A stretch of 63,678 nt of DNA, filler included, from an uncultured Methanosarcinales archaeon (GTDB lineage: Archaea > Nanobdellota > Nanobdellia > Woesearchaeales > CAYZNE01): NCBI GenBank assembly GCA_964405295.1. It is 14 parts of 14 records of this genome, joined end to end, with 100 filler letters (N's around TTAATTAATTAA, not from the genome) between each part and the next. Parts side by side here need not be neighbours in the genome. Positions count along the whole stretch, not along the records: positions 42,861 to 47,160 come from CAYONI010000051.1; 13 more parts are not named here. One strand, written 5' to 3'. The notes beneath the pieces are model-generated. The model was not told where the DNA came from, ran no database searches, and saw nothing but the letters and a program-made list of their open reading frames with translations. Made by a program: the position numbers and the translations under genes. This document shows, one piece after another, positions 42,757 through 47,262 of the stretch. The stretch's first letter is position 1. The number at the start of each line of letters is the position of its first letter.

Positions 42757-42893
42757 CATANNNNNNNNNNNNNNNNNNNNNNNNNNNNNNNNNNNNNNNN
42801 NNNNTTAATTAATTAANNNNNNNNNNNNNNNNNNNNNNNNNNNNNNNNNNNNNNNNNNNNTTGAGAGTCAAAATGTTTTAGTGATTATATAGT

Positions 42894-42915
42894 TGCATGA
42901 AACGACTGAAAATCC
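42894..42915 (+). repeat. Cassette boundary site 1
   Basis: TGCATGAAACGACTGAAAATCC. Confidence 0.95.
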
Positions 42916-43001
42916 GTTATTTTGTATTTACTTTCTGTTATTTTTAAAAATCCAATAAAACGTCCAATAAAATTGTTTAATAAGTAGAGGGAGGAATATA
43001 T

Positions 43002-43391
43002 ATGAAGAAGATTATATTTATACTATTAATATTTTTCATTACTTTCTCACTAATATCTTGTCAAAAATCAGAAACTACAATTTCTGACCGCTGTGATATA
43101 TATGACATATCGAGTGAGGTAGGAGTAGTTTTAGGGTACATAAATGGATATGCAATAAAAAGGACTGAAGTCAGTTGCGATTGGGTGGTTGGAGAAATAG
43201 TTGTAGATGGATATGATTTTGGTTATTTTTATTGGGGATGTTCAAGGGACTTAAATGGAATTGGTTATTATGCTGAAAAACATGATAATCATTATTACTT
43301 GCAGAGTCTTGTTGAGGAGCAAGAAATGACTACAGAACAAATATATCAATTTTATATGTGCGATTCGTTTCGAAATGGAAACATTGAATAG
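43002..43391 (+). CDS. Lipoprotein (cassette 1)
   Basis: LISC lipobox; GGAGG RBS. Confidence 0.8.
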   Translation: MKKIIFILLIFFITFSLISCQKSETTISDRCDIYDISSEVGVVLGYINGYAIKRTEVSCDWVVGEIVVDGYDFGYFYWGCSRDLNGIGYYAEKHDNHYYLQSLVEEQEMTTEQIYQFYMCDSFRNGNIE

Positions 43392-43510
43392 CAGAAGAGA
43401 TTTCTGAGTAGTATATATTTTGAAACCTTTTTCAGTTAATATTGGTTTCAATATCAAAGTATTTAGGATAAACGCTAAGGAAATTGACCACTTTGAATTA
43501 CTTCACAAGT

Positions 43511-43532
43511 TGCATGAAACGACTGAAAATCC
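43511..43532 (+). repeat. Cassette boundary site 2
   Basis: Exact 22-mer. Confidence 0.95.
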
Positions 43533-43569
43533 GTTAGTTAGAACGATTATAATAAAAAGGAGAGTAAAT

Positions 43570-43743
43570 ATGATAAAAAAAATTCATTTGGGAGCATCAA
43601 TTATATGTTTTGTAATAGGTTTAGTTGGATTCTTATCTAACATAGAAGAATTAGATAACTTTCTTCAAAATTTTAGTTTGCTATATTTTGGGTTGTTAAT
43701 TATTGGTGGATTTGGAATTACTAAATATGTATATGACAAATAA
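43570..43743 (+). CDS. Small two-TM membrane protein, 57 aa (cassette 2)
   Basis: AAGGAGAG RBS before ATG 43570; stop 3 bp before site 3. Confidence 0.75.
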   Translation: MIKKIHLGASIICFVIGLVGFLSNIEELDNFLQNFSLLYFGLLIIGGFGITKYVYDK

Positions 43744-43746
43744 CCT

Positions 43747-43768
43747 TGCATGAAACGACTGAAAATCC
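43747..43768 (+). repeat. Cassette boundary site 3
   Basis: Exact 22-mer, then ATGACTCGCTAATT, a decayed tRNA-like continuation. Confidence 0.95.
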
Positions 43769-43979
43769 ATGACTCGCTAATTTTCCGGGTATTTAGAATA
43801 AAGAGCAACAAGCTATATTATAAATAATTTCTACTAGTGATATGGAAGGAATAACAAAGCCCATTTGTTATTTTAGTCAAAATGAGTACGGTCTGTAATT
43901 TATTATGACATCACTCAAATTACTTAAAACGCCTATAATTTTTAACTTATGTTACAATTGATATTGAGGAGCTGATAAT

Positions 43980-44705
43980 ATGTGTACAGCAATAAATAAA
44001 AAATCAATATCATACGATTCATATGATAAAATGGCAAAGTATTATTATGAGGTAGTAGATAAAAAACCATTTAACGCATTATATGAACGTCCAGCGTTAC
44101 TTTCACTACTGCCTGATGTAAAAGGAAAAGTTGTCTTAGATGCTGGTTGTGCAGCTGGATGGTATACAAAATGGCTTTTGGATAATGGCGCAAAAACTAT
44201 CGCAATAGACTTCAATAAGAAAATGGTAGATTTTACTAATCGTAGAGTAGAATCACAATGTCTTGTACAACAAGCAGATTTGAATAATCCTCTGGATTTT
44301 TTAGCAGATGAATCAATAGATATAATAATATCTTCATTAACACTACATTATATAGAAAATTGGGATTTTGTATTCAATCAGTTTTATAGGAAATTGAAAA
44401 AGAATGGAATCGTAGTGTTTTCAACTCACCATCCTTTTATGGATTTTCATATGTTTAATATTGAAAATTACTTTAATACAACTTTGATTCATGATGAATG
44501 GGAAACAAACAATGGCAAAGTTAAGGTAGACTTTTTTAGAAGACCTTTACAAGATATCATTAACCCGGTTTTAAATAACAATTTTGAAATAATAAAGCTG
44601 TTAGAACCTTTTCCAACTAAGGAATTTGAAAAAATTCAACCAAAAACCTATAAACGTTTATGTAATAATCCACATTTCCTATTTATTAAAGCTGTTAAGA
44701 AGTAG
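43980..44705 (+). CDS. Class I SAM-dependent methyltransferase (cassette 3)
   Basis: VLDAGCAAG, SSLTLHY and FSTHHP. Confidence 0.9.
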   Translation: MCTAINKKSISYDSYDKMAKYYYEVVDKKPFNALYERPALLSLLPDVKGKVVLDAGCAAGWYTKWLLDNGAKTIAIDFNKKMVDFTNRRVESQCLVQQADLNNPLDFLADESIDIIISSLTLHYIENWDFVFNQFYRKLKKNGIVVFSTHHPFMDFHMFNIENYFNTTLIHDEWETNNGKVKVDFFRRPLQDIINPVLNNNFEIIKLLEPFPTKEFEKIQPKTYKRLCNNPHFLFIKAVKK

Positions 44706-44872
44706 TTATAAATTATGCATAAAAAAAAGAATATAATTGTAGAGAGATATAGTTTTCTTATAGACGATTTTTAAGCAATGGAAGAGTATAAATATATTAA
44801 TAAGCTACAATCTAAAACGTTATAACGATCCATATCATTAATAATTTTAACTATTATGGGAGATAATACCGT

Positions 44873-44929
44873 TGCATGAAACGACTGAAAAGCCATGTGT
44901 CGCCAGTTCAATTCTGGCCCGAACCACCA
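44873..44929 (+). other. Cassette boundary site 4 continuing into the 3' half of tRNA-Phe(GAA)
   Basis: GACTGAAAAGCCATGTGTCGCCAGTTCAATTCTGGCCCGAACCACCA (44883-44929): anticodon loop, T-arm, acceptor strand and CCA; no 5' half. Confidence 0.9.
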
Positions 44930-44942
44930 TCTATATAGAAAT

Positions 44943-44965
44943 AAAGCCGTTTATTGGCTTTTTTT
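44943..44965 (+). terminator. Rho-independent terminator after the tRNA fragment
   Basis: AAAGCC-GTTTATT-GGCTTT followed by a T run. Confidence 0.7.
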
Positions 44966-45085
44966 ATTTGGACTTGCACAGCAATATCAATCATATATTG
45001 AAATGCTACGTTTACTAATTTTGATAAAATAGTTATTATTATTTTTTGATTTGGTATAATGGAGAAAGAGAATAAGGTGATGAAA

Positions 45086-46243
45086 ATGAATAAAAAACAA
45101 AAAATTGCTATCTTAAGTATTTCATTGCTTATTATTATGTCAAGTGCTGCAATTTCACCTGCCTTACCATATATTGGTGAATATTTCAGTAATTCAAGTG
45201 AATTGATGATTAAGATGGTAATCTCTTTGCCTGCTATCTTTATAATTCCTGTAACTTTGGTCACAGGCAGGTTGATTTTTTATGTTAAAAAGAAACATTT
45301 ATTGTATGTAGGGCTATCATTATATATAATTGGTGGATTGGGGGGAGCATTACAAAATTCAATTTATCTTTTGTTAGTATTTAGAGCATTGATGGGGATT
45401 GGTATAGGTGTCCTTATTCCTTTAACTAGAGGCCTTATTGCAGACTTTTTTACAGGTGATGAAAGATCTAAAATGATGGGATACTCATCTGCCTTTAATA
45501 ATTTAGGCGGGATAATAGCTACAATACTCGCTGGTTTACTAACGGTGTATGGTTGGAGATATCCTTTCTTGGTTTACATACTTGCTTTTGTCGTTTTACT
45601 CTTAGTTATATTTTATTTGCCAAATCAAGATATTCCTCCAAAAGAAACACACAAAATTCATATTAATAAAAATGTGTGGATGATAGGACTTACCCATTAT
45701 ATGATGATTATTACTTTTTATGCAGTTCCTTCAGGGTTAGGTTATTTTGTTTTAACAAATAATTTTGGTGGCGGGGTCACTACAGGTCTTTTGATTTCAA
45801 TTACAACTTTATGTTCTTTCTTTTTAGGGATAGTTTTCCATCGTTTAAAATTACTTTTAAAAGGAGGGACAATTTTATTTGGGTTAATTATACTTACATT
45901 AGGTATGCTTGGTATTGGAATTTCAAGTAATCTATTTCAAGTAGCTATTGCATTGGCACTTGTGGGATTTGGAATGGGTATTATACCACCGATGATATAT
46001 TTACAAACTTCATTAGTTAGCTCCAAAAATGATGTTGTTTTATCTTTGGCAATAGTATCAATATTTTCATTTTTAGGTCAATTTTCTTCTCCTATTATTA
46101 ACAGTTTCTTTCAAAGCATCTTTAACTATCATAGTGCTGGATCAACGTTTATAATTTCAACGTTTATCGGGTCATTTACAATCTTAGTTTTAATTGTCAA
46201 CAAATTTATTAGTGTGTATAGAAAATCAAACCAAAATGATTAA
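45086..46243 (+). CDS. MFS transporter (cassette 4)
   Basis: About 12 TM segments; FRALMGIG and LIADFFTGDER; start may instead be 45080. Confidence 0.9.
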   Translation: MNKKQKIAILSISLLIIMSSAAISPALPYIGEYFSNSSELMIKMVISLPAIFIIPVTLVTGRLIFYVKKKHLLYVGLSLYIIGGLGGALQNSIYLLLVFRALMGIGIGVLIPLTRGLIADFFTGDERSKMMGYSSAFNNLGGIIATILAGLLTVYGWRYPFLVYILAFVVLLLVIFYLPNQDIPPKETHKIHINKNVWMIGLTHYMMIITFYAVPSGLGYFVLTNNFGGGVTTGLLISITTLCSFFLGIVFHRLKLLLKGGTILFGLIILTLGMLGIGISSNLFQVAIALALVGFGMGIIPPMIYLQTSLVSSKNDVVLSLAIVSIFSFLGQFSSPIINSFFQSIFNYHSAGSTFIISTFIGSFTILVLIVNKFISVYRKSNQND

Positions 46244-46380
46244 ATTTGAATAAATCACTATTTTTGCGTAATATAACAAGTTACAACTAGAAATGTTATA
46301 CCGAGCCGTATCACAAATAATTGTAACTAATGATAAACACATTTTTTCGAACTCCAAAAACTTTATTTGAAGTGGTTTTG

Positions 46381-46402
46381 TGCATGAAACGACTGAAAAT
46401 CA
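46381..46402 (+). repeat. Cassette boundary site 5
   Basis: TGCATGAAACGACTGAAAATCA (21/22 match). Confidence 0.95.
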
Positions 46403-46451
46403 ATATGTTTATATATTATTTAGCGCTTATTTACAATTAAAGGAGAAGAAT

Positions 46452-47033
46452 ATGAAATTGGTTAAATCATTTTTACCGTTTTTATTGATAATAATTATTA
46501 AATTATGTATAGACTTAACCTATTTTCCACACGAAACCATTTATCATTTATTCAAAAGCATTGTATATTTTTATGTACCTTATATAGTAGTTATATTGTT
46601 TGGAATATTATATTTTAGAAAGTTTAAAAGATTTAAATTAATATTAATTATTTCAAGTATATTAGTATTTCTAAATATAGTTCTAGCTTATGGCCCTTTG
46701 TTTATGCATATAGTATTTTATACAACATCTGGTTTTGTTATTGAATTTGAAAGGTTCTCAATAATATTCTCTATATTATTTGCCTTAATCGCATTAATAT
46801 ACTCTATTAATTCTAAAAATAATATAGCTATTATATTTGCATTTATTTCTATTTCTATAGCAATTTATGTAGAAATTATGTATATACCAAACTTGGATTA
46901 TAATCCATATGAAGAATTCAAATCACTCATACACTTTGGTTTATATAGAAGTATTGGAAGATCGATTCTTTCGATGATACTGATATCGTTATCAGTCTTC
47001 ACTGGGTTCTTTTCTTTATTAAAATCAGAATAA
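46452..47033 (+). CDS. Multi-TM hypothetical membrane protein (cassette 5)
   Basis: AAGGAG RBS before ATG 46452. Confidence 0.75.
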   Translation: MKLVKSFLPFLLIIIIKLCIDLTYFPHETIYHLFKSIVYFYVPYIVVILFGILYFRKFKRFKLILIISSILVFLNIVLAYGPLFMHIVFYTTSGFVIEFERFSIIFSILFALIALIYSINSKNNIAIIFAFISISIAIYVEIMYIPNLDYNPYEEFKSLIHFGLYRSIGRSILSMILISLSVFTGFFSLLKSE

Positions 47034-47105
47034 TTCTTAAAGCATTTTAGTTTTTTAAACCCGTTTTAAAGAGGAAAAAAGAAATCTAATTTGACTTCTT
47101 GACTA

Positions 47106-47127
47106 TGCATGAAACGACTGAAAATCC
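47106..47127 (+). repeat. Cassette boundary site 6
   Basis: Exact 22-mer. Confidence 0.95.
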
Positions 47128-47262
47128 ATTAGTTCAAATAAAATATATAGTTTATTTGTTNNNNNNNNNNNNNNNNNNNNNNNNNNNNNNNNNNNNNNNN
47201 NNNNTTAATTAATTAANNNNNNNNNNNNNNNNNNNNNNNNNNNNNNNNNNNNNNNNNNNNCA

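Follow-up and report, generated by a model that had tools for sequence, protein, structure and literature searches.

A tandem array of mostly one-gene cassettes bounded by short tRNA-Phe-derived sites, probably stacked and reshuffled by site-specific recombination

What process would set direct copies of one short sequence, part of it matching a tRNA-Phe anticodon arm, between successive small co-oriented genes until they fill a whole contig? The contig in question occupies 4.3 kb of the window (the whole stretch of DNA analyzed, 63,678 nt), and is stray bacterial DNA (Izemoplasmatales-like) inside an archaeal bin. The reading we consider probable is that it is a tandem array of integrase-less, mostly one-gene cassettes, in which site-specific recombination at a 29-bp site has done the stacking and reshuffling.

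Anatomy of the Array

A motif search of the window found six plus-strand matches to the 22-mer of the original prediction, at the coordinates and spacings (617, 236, 1126, 1508, and 725 bp) given there, and none in 100 dinucleotide-preserving shuffles. Four of the six match it perfectly and the other two differ from it at one base each; no copy departs from the others in its first 19 bases. The array occupies the entire contig, the first site beginning 34 bases in and the final 22-mer ending 33 bases short of the contig end. ORF calls agree, for all five intervals, with the proposal of one co-oriented gene in each (129, 57, 241, 394, and 193 aa, in array order), with Pfam support for the methyltransferase and the MFS transporter only. 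The features, all on the plus strand, are:

42861..47160, +, whole contig (G000:C51): cassette array truncated mid-array at either end, bounded by N-linkers
42894..42922, +, site 1: TGCATGAAACGA-CTGAAAA-TCCGTTATTT, with a short, tRNA-like right arm
43002..43391, +, cassette 1 gene: 129 aa, signal peptide with LISC lipobox, without a Pfam family
43511..43539, +, site 2: motif match
43570..43743, +, cassette 2 gene: 57 aa, hydrophobic
43747..43775, +, site 3: right arm runs on into a decayed tRNA 3′ half
43980..44705, +, cassette 3 gene: 241-aa class I SAM methyltransferase (Pfam Methyltransf_11, E 9.9e-19)
44873..44901, +, site 4: one mismatch, G for T directly after the loop (..AAAAGCC)
44885..44929, +, complete tRNA-Phe 3′ half without a 5′ half, read from the sequence, within and after site 4
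44943..44969, +, intrinsic terminator downstream of the tRNA half, arranged as behind real tRNA-Phe genes
45059..46243, +, cassette 4 gene: 394-aa MFS transporter (Pfam MFS_1, E 1.8e-36)
46340..46365, +, second element resembling a tRNA-Trp anticodon arm (..TTTTTTCGAA-CTCCAAA-AAC..), 38 bases ahead of the GAAACGA of site 5
46381..46409, +, site 5: a single mismatch, with TCA in place of TCC (..ATCA)
46452..47033, +, cassette 5 gene: 193 aa, multi-pass hydrophobic, without a Pfam family
47106..47134, +, site 6: opens a cassette that continues in metagenome locus L223

The tRNA half behind the fourth copy, which the original prediction had missed together with its terminator, comprises the anticodon loop, 3′ stem, variable loop, T arm, acceptor 3′ strand, and an encoded CCA; ARAGORN called no tRNA at this position. 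With its terminator it is identical at 84 of 95 bases to the tRNA-Phe gene of a relative (L072). The pairing of a Trp-like element with a Phe-type site is also found in the WC30 genome and in further genomes. In L223, the cassette opening at site 6 carries a 120-aa lipoprotein-like gene and has a different upstream neighbor.

The 29-bp Site

The conserved block continues beyond the 22-mer, a point also missed earlier, to 29 bp in three parts: a 12-nt left arm (TGCATGAAACGA), element-specific and non-tRNA; CTGAAAA, the 7-nt tRNA-Phe anticodon loop and presumed region of strand exchange; and a right arm (TCCATGTGTC), a copy of the tRNA-Phe 3′ anticodon stem and variable loop, which in about a quarter of sites extends through the full tRNA 3′ half and terminator. 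The motif had been described as part tRNA and part not, and real tRNA-Phe genes of related bacteria do contain GACTGAAAATCC and not TGCATGAAAC. Among 127 non-identical sites at about 35 loci, the left edge of the block is sharp: TGCAT (positions −5 to −1) is conserved in 110–121 of 127 although outside the selection, while −6 and beyond are at background. Because the sites were collected by an exact 19-mer, the central 14 positions appear more conserved than they are. The non-tRNA left arm is near-intact across genera. Degenerate sites occur as well; in WC30 (CP134495.1, a record titled complete chromosome), 18 of 60 sites have one mismatch and 4 have two.

As a single strand the site folds no better than shuffles, with no attC-like hairpin, and it matches no Rfam family apart from one chance-level snoRNA match; the earlier statement that these sites are unlike attC holds.

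A repeat placed ahead of each gene could instead be a regulatory or RNA-level signal (promoter, operator, processing site, or tRNA-like punctuation), the cassette pattern then being operon structure. The site always lies between genes and points the same way as they do, its initial TTGCAT resembles a −35 box, and some copies have a terminator behind them. However, the −10 consensus is TATAAT, and the corresponding position here, at a 17-nt spacer, reads ATGTGT, a poor match; promoter-like matches in the contig (37, vs. 30.6 ± 5.9 in shuffles) are not enriched; and the folding and Rfam results give no sign of an RNA element. A signal of this kind would also leave unexplained why homology between unrelated arrays breaks exactly at the site, and why the site is identical to the end of an integrase element at tRNA-Phe (both described below). 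We regard it as very improbable.

An Integrase Element at tRNA-Phe

In relatives, the site is the attP-type junction at the right end of 3.3–4.5 kb elements inserted in the tRNA-Phe anticodon loop, the non-tRNA arm (TTGCATGAAACGA) being the right end of the element itself. The hosts are Izemoplasmatales-like Mycoplasmatota, and the elements carry a 286–288 aa Xer-like tyrosine recombinase, an XRE regulator, and often a Viral_Rep-type replication protein. The complete 3.3-kb element in L151 (G019) has an intact tRNA-Phe at its left end, and at its right end ATATTGCATGAAACGA-CTGAAAA, after which the tRNA 3′ half is repeated without change. This layout recurs in WC30 and L072 (MAG22), where cassettes come after the element, so that an intact tRNA-Phe and a tyrosine integrase, the linked partners that had been predicted, do head such arrays in relatives. 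Close integrase orthologs (60% identity or more) adjoin tRNA-Phe at five of seven loci, the remaining two being short contigs, and the integrase paralogs sort by target tRNA (Phe, Trp, Arg, Thr, Leu).

Across 61 relatives, the integrase tends to accompany arrays: it is present in 4 of 9 genomes with at least two sites and in 2 of the 52 others (Fisher p = 0.003). No close integrase was found in three relatives with 8–12 sites, which are incomplete MAGs, and no integrase homolog lies within 6 kb of the sites in 62 metagenome loci. The earlier proposal of stacking through short tRNA-mimicking att sites is supported overall; the cognate integrase and a bacterial tRNA-Phe were both sought in this assembly and neither was found there.

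A recombinase encoded elsewhere in the genome and acting in trans might recombine any two sites. Given two that are directly repeated, it would release a cassette circle with one site, which could then insert again, either into the tRNA-Phe gene or into any site already present, much as integron cassettes do at attI and attC. The cassette unit would run from the tRNA-like right arm through the gene to the left arm. As a counterpoint, the homology of the 29-bp repeat, or of about 85 bp with the complete tRNA half, could allow some homologous recombination.

The Cassettes and Their Reassortment

WC30 has its 60 sites in about ten clusters. The sites were checked for scatter of the kind expected of a dispersed repeat; they form same-strand clusters between co-oriented small genes, and do not occur in both orientations within an array. 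An array can have up to 11 sites in 9.5 kb (L223), and cassettes are also dispersed at loci away from the tRNA gene. The 85 cassettes extracted are 236–4736 bp long (median 691 bp), and 63 have a single ORF; 119 ORFs have the same orientation as the site and 5 are opposed. A Pfam scan found no integrase among 123 cassette ORFs, nor was the Rep family PF02407 in its output; 95 of the 123 have no Pfam family at all, and one has a weak WapI-like match.

The order of cassettes was predicted to vary, and it is not fixed. Metagenome locus L171 matches five cassettes of our contig at 99.8–100%, and extends the array leftwards by one further 705-bp cassette and one further site; the order given here for the contig rests on the original assembly and on this identical locus, which may derive from the same sample or from a sister one. 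The 236-bp and 705-bp cassettes are reordered in L223, with different neighbors: 705-617-236-1126 in L171 vs. 592-236-705-1019 in L223. The 236-bp cassette (the 57-aa gene) is 100% identical in three neighborhoods (the contig and L171, L223, and L191), and also in contigs of runs X3 and X4, which lack its window neighbors.

Within the WC30 genome, cassettes 99.5–100% identical sit in two arrays. A 607-bp cassette has 99.5% identical copies there with unrelated neighbors, and a 581-bp cassette has copies with 100% identity at two loci separated by 416 kb. The usual left arm adjoins one of these copies and a tRNA-5′-like arm the other; identity begins 2 bases ahead of CTGAAAA and stops 5 bases past the next CTGAAAA. 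A 564-bp cassette is common to two genomes at 90% identity, with its boundaries exactly at sites. Whole cassettes are thus reassorted as modules, with homology breaking inside the site.

These data bear on a second reading, in which the cassettes are passive scars: full elements would have inserted serially at tRNA-Phe, each losing its integrase and replication genes (CIME accretion and decay), and the cassettes would be static rather than singly mobilized. Tandem arrays at tRNA genes have this as their textbook origin, as set out in the available text of two sources (PMC5704250; Hackl, bioRxiv 10.1101/2020.12.28.424599), and because degenerate sites and broken or decayed integrases do exist among the relatives, part of the observed pattern is decay. 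The cassette ORFs, however, hold neither an integrase remnant nor PF02407; a one-gene cassette of median size is far shorter than the 3.3–4.5 kb parent; the non-tRNA arm has stayed nearly intact; and identical single cassettes in different arrays and orders, with breakpoints inside the site, are not predicted by static remnants. Scars as the whole explanation seem unlikely to us, though they and cassette mobility can both be partly true.

Real shuffling might also proceed by the host's general homologous recombination between repeats, or the order differences might be assembly artifacts, in neither case with a dedicated recombinase. Low-frequency recombination is possible between repeats of 29 to about 85 bp, and repeats of this kind make short-read assemblers and unitigs break off or join wrongly; Logan contigs of public runs all stop at a site, and their apparent joints are ambiguous because the 19–55-base sides fall inside the repeat. 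On the other hand, junctions with divergent left arms (GTTAGCAATATGGA in WC30, CCTGGTGAATAGGA in L191) offer only about 14–16 identical bases, too few for efficient RecA exchange given its minimal homology lengths; arrays and duplicated cassettes are present within a record titled complete chromosome; and the integrase element has this same site as its att junction. We give this explanation very little credence, and prefer site-specific recombination.

Comparison with Known Systems

Integrons (IntI, attI, attC) are the closest analogy in organization: they too are arrays of small, mostly one-gene, co-oriented cassettes, largely of unknown function, with a recombination site at the 3′ end of each cassette and an order that varies between strains. 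The integrase, where present, is likewise at the array head and divergent from the array, and many arrays here have no adjoining integrase, as in CALINs. The recombinase, however, is Xer-like rather than IntI (78 bits against the IntI-type model TIGR02249, with a cut-off of 265); the site is a simple 29 bp with no single-strand hairpin, unlike attC (55–140 nt); the primary site is a tRNA gene; and some cassettes carry a terminator, so that not all can be read from one Pc-type promoter. For the host phylum, the available text of Cury et al. (2016; PMC4889954) records no complete integrons.

A CIME, as defined in the available text of PMC5704250, is an att-flanked unit without integration genes, mobilizable in principle by a neighbor's integrase. 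Those of Streptococcus ICEs and IMEs similarly sit at a tRNA gene, in tandem with an element that bears an integrase. Each is a decayed ICE or IME on the kilobase scale, and a site usually has one or two of them, whereas here a single array or genome has the many sites noted above, and cassettes as small as 236 bp have no mobility-gene remnants and are in some cases away from the tRNA gene.

The pdif modules of Acinetobacter plasmids are also discrete genes in varied contexts, bounded by short (about 28 bp), simple Xer-type sites. Their sites are of the dif type, occur in alternating orientation, and are acted on by the host XerC/XerD, while the sites here are direct repeats from a tRNA anticodon arm, with a dedicated integrase.

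The tycheposons and tRNA-flanked islands of Prochlorococcus involve small elements with integration and replication modules and cargo, inserting at tRNA genes, where newcomers push older elements inwards and partial tRNAs come to fill the islands (available text of Hackl et al., bioRxiv 10.1101/2020.12.28.424599). As described there, their integrase paralogs also sort by target tRNA. The host phylum differs, as does the replication gene (Viral_Rep HUH here, where present; polymerases, primases, and helicases in that account). The internal junctions here keep an intact element-specific arm and bound singly reassorting genes, while the account of the Prochlorococcus islands speaks of remnants and larger cargo modules.

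In rAID-1 of Bacteroidales, a long array of small genes (orphan immunity genes) with repetitive intergenic sequences has a XerD-family tyrosine recombinase at its head, and its authors call it reminiscent of integrons (available text of Ross et al., bioRxiv 10.1101/471110). It belongs to another phylum and, by its description, differs in having repeats not derived from tRNA; its cargo in that account is immunity genes, set against our single WapI-like match.

Since it has neither an IntI-type integrase nor an attC hairpin, the array is not an integron. The original prediction did not recognize it as a named system; CIME accretion, tycheposon islands, and rAID-1, however, are related ideas that do have names, and the array resembles all three while appearing to function like an integron. 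It looks like integron-style gene shuffling in a bacterial group without known integrons.

The array and the contig that carries it

All six predicted copies of the 22-mer are present on the plus strand, at window positions 42894, 43511, 43747, 44873, 46381, and 47106 (sites 1 to 6): four are exact, two have one mismatch, and 100 dinucleotide-preserving shuffles gave no matches. Each pair of neighboring sites encloses a single co-oriented ORF, again as predicted; Pfam names two of these, a methyltransferase and an MFS transporter. The array fills the whole of its contig (C51; 4300 bp, window 42861–47160), and the claimed proximity to both contig ends amounts to about 33 bases from the outermost site on either side. 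The window as a whole is made up of 15 contigs of the bin (3 with internal 100-N gaps), linked by 44-N blocks around TTAATTAATTAA, and features are not to be read across these linkers. ARAGORN finds no tRNA on C51. Features within the array are:

44885–44929, plus strand: perfect 3′ half of tRNA-Phe with encoded CCA, behind copy 4 (by reading of the sequence)
44885–44969, plus strand: this tRNA-Phe 3′ half with an intrinsic terminator, behind site 4; the displaced tRNA copy of the window
44830–44841 and 46306–46317: local motif GAGCCGTATCACAAA, near cassette ends; also at about 1600 and 3160 (reverse strand) of a second contig, C66
46340–46365: Trp-type site, (C)TGCATTTTCGGT-CTCCAAA-ACCG, resembling the tRNA-Trp anticodon arm

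The displaced tRNA half and terminator are identical at 84 of 95 bases to the tRNA-Phe gene of a Mycoplasmatota-type relative (locus L072). The sole tRNA-Phe of the bin, on contig C1, is unlike this fragment, and sits behind a zinc-ribbon ORF that we take to encode an S27ae-type ribosomal protein; the large contigs of the bin have an archaeal look. Within the bin, the motif is confined to C51 and C66, a short contig (3226 bp) of the same architecture, with three sites and single genes between them. In a search of one genome per species, the 19-mer occurs in 103 stretches. Loci with multiple copies are all in some 25 assemblies, whose labels include Mycoplasmatota, Tenericutes, Izemoplasmatales, Mariniplasma, Acholeplasmataceae, and similar names, while the roughly 15 single matches in unrelated phyla are near chance expectation by our own estimate. 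It follows from this restriction within the bin, the distribution of multi-copy loci, and the match to the L072 tRNA that C51 and C66 are mis-binned bacterial (Izemoplasmatales-like) contigs. C66 is also 99.9–100% identical to a metagenome locus (L221) across a shared 2.3 kb. The GAGCCGTATCACAAA motif was found in C51 and C66 only, and near none of the sites in other genomes.

The recombination site

Comparison of 127 non-identical sites with their flanks gives a conserved block of 29 bp, TGCAT GAAACGA CTGAAAA TCCATGTGTC. Its left edge is sharp: TGCAT, which was not used in selecting the sites, is kept in 110–121 of the 127, whereas one base further out conservation drops to background. To the right, conservation fades past the tRNA variable loop; the T arm is reached in about 31 of the 127, usually with a terminator following. 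In WC30, a related complete genome (CP134495.1), the sites with a T arm run on into the terminator that also trails the real tRNA-Phe gene. The division proposed originally, between a tRNA-derived loop and stem and a left arm of other origin, holds: GA-CTGAAAA and everything rightward is tRNA-Phe sequence, and the 10–12 bases on the left are not.

The sites are also, as had been claimed, unlike the long palindromes of integron attC sites. Folded as single-stranded DNA in 60-nt segments, the six window sites have z scores from −0.89 to +1.54 against shuffles, no better than expected. No Rfam family matches them (one snoRNA match, E 0.027, 21.6 bits vs. a gathering score of 50, is at chance level), and counts of 7-mers upstream yield AT-rich words only, with no universal second motif. 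A search of a viral collection gave one match, by chance, inside large ORFs of a 4-kb contig and without site context. A reading of TTGCAT-N17 as a promoter was rejected, since it has a poor −10 position and promoter-like sites show no enrichment.

An integrase-bearing element at tRNA-Phe

The origin of the left arm is seen in a 3.5-kb contig of a relative (L151), which shows a complete, simple element. After an intact tRNA-Phe gene (as called by ARAGORN, at attL) come a 160-aa ORF, a tyrosine recombinase of 288 aa encoded on the opposite strand, an XRE regulator, and a pair of small ORFs; the right end is ATATTGCATGAAACGA-CTGAAAA and then, at attR, the tRNA 3′ half and its flank repeated exactly. 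The non-tRNA arm is thus the right-hand terminus of an element that bears an integrase and has inserted into the anticodon loop. WC30 and L072 have the same layout, but there more junctions come after the first, each separated from the next by one gene; in WC30 the array's last site leads into the tRNA 3′ half and terminator. The L072 element also holds a Viral_Rep-type gene (303 aa). At its position the WC30 element, which has an inserted IS200-like gene, has a 111-aa ORF without a Pfam match that we take for a remnant of it.

The original prediction had proposed looking for an intact tRNA-Phe and a tyrosine integrase at the array end, and in relatives the two do adjoin one another (WC30, L072, L130, L131/L151, and L132). 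At a threshold of 60% identity or more, orthologues of this integrase are found in 6 of 61 relatives; five of the seven loci adjoin tRNA-Phe, and the remaining two are on short contigs. Broken integrases exist. In WC30 the 288-aa integrase is encoded at CP134495.1 1247296–1248162. The protein has a Phage_integrase domain and a weak SAM-like N-terminus, with Xer models and XerA structures as top matches; it fails the integron-integrase model TIGR02249 (76–78 bits vs. a cut-off of 265).

The window assembly itself yielded no bacterial tRNA-Phe and no cognate integrase. None is encoded on C51 or close by in the bin, where only distant matches occur (at most 68 bits vs. 377–617 for orthologues), mostly on archaeal contigs, and none of the 62 metagenome loci has an integrase homologue within 6 kb of its sites.

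Cassettes and their exchange

WC30 has 60 sites in about 10 same-strand clusters (38 match the 17-mer exactly, 18 differ from it at one base, and 4 at two bases). Just one cluster starts at tRNA-Phe; the others lie inside other islands or elsewhere. Site strand tracks position in this genome, minus from 219 to 993 kb and plus from 1014 to 1283 kb and at 131 kb, so the arrays may be co-oriented with replication or with local gene direction. Decayed, degenerate sites are present as well.

Cassettes extracted between consecutive sites number 85, from 236 to 4736 bp (median 691), and 63 of them contain a single ORF. Relative to the site, 119 ORFs are co-oriented and 5 opposed, and stop codons lie a median of 36 nt ahead of the next site. 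The Pfam scan took 123 of the 124 ORFs, one being left aside because it spans two loci; matches of any kind occur for 28 (Mrr, GNAT, Fic, HNH, barnase-type RNase, HTH, AAA_14/DUF4143, Band_7, and others), and among the 123 there is neither a Phage_integrase domain nor a mobility-gene remnant. Terminators within arrays, such as that behind site 4 of the window, lean against a single common promoter (Pc) at the platform driving all cassettes.

The same cassettes recur in different company. Within WC30, a 607-bp cassette is 99.5% identical in two arrays with unrelated neighbors, the limits of homology falling inside the site. A 581-bp cassette is 100% identical at 573.9 and 989.8 kb, with the usual left arm at one locus and a tRNA-5′-like arm, GTTAGCAATATGGA, at the other; identity extends from two bases before CTGAAAA to five bases past the next CTGAAAA, and exchange would therefore have been confined to about 14 shared bases. 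At junctions with long tRNA halves, short-homology recombination may be the explanation instead. Between genomes, a 564-bp cassette is common to WC30 and one other at 90% identity, with exact site-to-site boundaries.

The window's own array was recovered in a metagenome scan (L171), with five cassettes at 99.8–100% identity and a further 705-bp cassette on the left. A 9.5-kb metagenome contig with 11 sites (L223) holds the 236-bp cassette of the window at 100% and the 705-bp cassette at 98.4%. The comparison of cassette order suggested by the original prediction thus gives different orders, 592-236-705-1019 in L223 vs. 705-617-236-1126 in L171; the cassette starting at the last window site also has a different upstream neighbor in L223. 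The 236-bp cassette stands behind yet another left arm in metagenome locus L191, and at 100% identity, without its window neighbors, on contigs from two salt-lake runs. Logan contigs of eight runs, compared with C51, break at each site, where the joints are ambiguous (sides of 19–55 bases, inside the repeat), and give no sign of circles or excision.

At two junctions, CP134495.1 573968 and about 1002 of L191, the left arm (GTTAGCAATATGGA and CCTGGTGAATAGGA, respectively) is like a decayed 5′ anticodon stem of tRNA-Phe; these are attL-like, in places where ARAGORN gave no tRNA-Phe gene. Separately, the MFS gene of the window and its upstream region (45017–46211) match part of a 7.8-kb contig from two salt-lake runs at 91% identity, with 108 differences. 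This homology ends short of both flanking sites, so the salt-lake copy may represent the gene outside a cassette, and may offer a clue to the formation of cassettes.

Sites and islands at other tRNAs

Paralogues of the integrase (29–44% identity) adjoin tRNA-Trp, Arg(tct), Arg(cct), Thr(ggt), and Leu(tag), and the crossovers of WC30 islands at tRNA-Arg(cct), Lys(ctt), and Tyr are also in the anticodon arm. These three islands (CP134495.1 122.5–135.3, 574.2–577.3, and 1010.4–1028.1 kb, respectively) have displaced tRNA copies of 49–57 nt, each beginning in the anticodon arm. Phe-type sites are present inside the Arg and Tyr islands, so that arrays are also carried by other mobile elements.

Besides the window example, Trp-type sites occur at about 219.8 kb and at 1250.56 kb in CP134495.1, and in loci L029, L030, and L057. 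They are located either 36–38 bases ahead of the GAAACGA in certain Phe-type sites or immediately behind such a site, and share their layout of TGCAT, 7 nt, and loop; the paralogue adjoining tRNA-Trp, in another genome (L133), has 44% identity. Such pairing hints at exchange of the same cassettes by sister integrases that differ in their tRNA specificity. As a general rule for sister integrases the layout was rejected: it is true of Phe-type sites and of the few Trp-type ones, and fails at the Arg(cct), Lys(ctt), and Tyr attR junctions of WC30.

A probable mechanism

The proposal that an integrase stacks single-gene cassettes through short tRNA-mimicking att sites is supported by site anatomy, the link to an integrase-bearing element, and reassortment, all shown by sequence comparison; catalysis, circles, and supply of integrase in trans we infer. 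On the simplest account, the integrase would recombine the 29-bp sites, the 7-nt anticodon loop serving as the overlap region. A circular element or cassette (left arm, loop, right arm) would recombine with the tRNA-Phe gene, which would be restored on insertion where the right arm is a full tRNA half. Later arrivals could insert either at the gene itself or into any junction already in place, so that all internal junctions would have the left-arm/loop/right-arm form, as is observed. Recombination between two directly repeated junctions would set a circle free.

A broader reading, which we judge evenly balanced, is that Izemoplasmatales-like Mycoplasmatota have independently evolved a true functional analogue of the integron. 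A Xer-like integrase, at home on a small Rep-encoding element at tRNA-Phe, would then capture, excise, and reinsert single-gene cassettes via a double-stranded site of 29 bp that is patterned on the anticodon arm, feeding many chromosomal arrays per genome; the cassette pool would be common to genera and habitats.

Comparison with known systems

According to the portions of Cury et al. (2016; PMC4889954) available to us, there are no complete integrons in Tenericutes or Firmicutes, and the reason is left open. If the broader reading is true, the combination of a recombinase and a portable site for each single-gene cassette arose in these groups by another route, built on a simple 29-bp site and an ordinary Xer-like integrase that targets tRNA genes. 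The short, defined site, small integrase, and complete genome with 60 sites make a tractable model, in which the steps from island at a tRNA to cassette platform are directly testable. Hundreds of small unannotated genes would also be marked as a mobile accessory pool (95 of 123 cassette ORFs are without a Pfam family). Our search of the literature on integrons, tRNA-targeting integrases, and cassette arrays in Izemoplasmatales, Tenericutes, and Firmicutes found no description of this array system.

Of the features of a tRNA-targeting island, a tyrosine integrase stands beside its intact target tRNA in the relatives, but not in the window assembly; in L151 and WC30 the far end is marked by a displaced tRNA 3′ copy, and the gene is restored by the element. 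With att sites on either side and no integration genes, the cassettes also fit the formal description of CIMEs as excerpted from PMC5704250. The definition there has a CIME arise through decay of an ICE or IME, an origin that the cassettes, which contain no mobility-gene remnants, may or may not share; compared with the tandem accretion of CIMEs in the same excerpts, the grain here is much finer and the copy number higher. Partitioning of integrase paralogues by target tRNA is shared with tycheposons, and the arrays resemble, by description in the portions of these sources available to us, the tycheposon islands of Prochlorococcus (10.1101/2020.12.28.424599) and rAID-1 arrays (10.1101/471110).

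The system is not an integron, since it has neither an IntI-type integrase nor attC sites, which are long imperfect palindromes folding as single-stranded hairpins. From its sequence organization it is best described as a site-specific cassette platform, and its likeness to integrons is otherwise extensive: cassette size, unknown cargo, integrase-less arrays, co-oriented and mostly single-ORF cassettes each with a recombination site at its end, and reassortment, with the same cassette found in other positions and beside other neighbors between strains.
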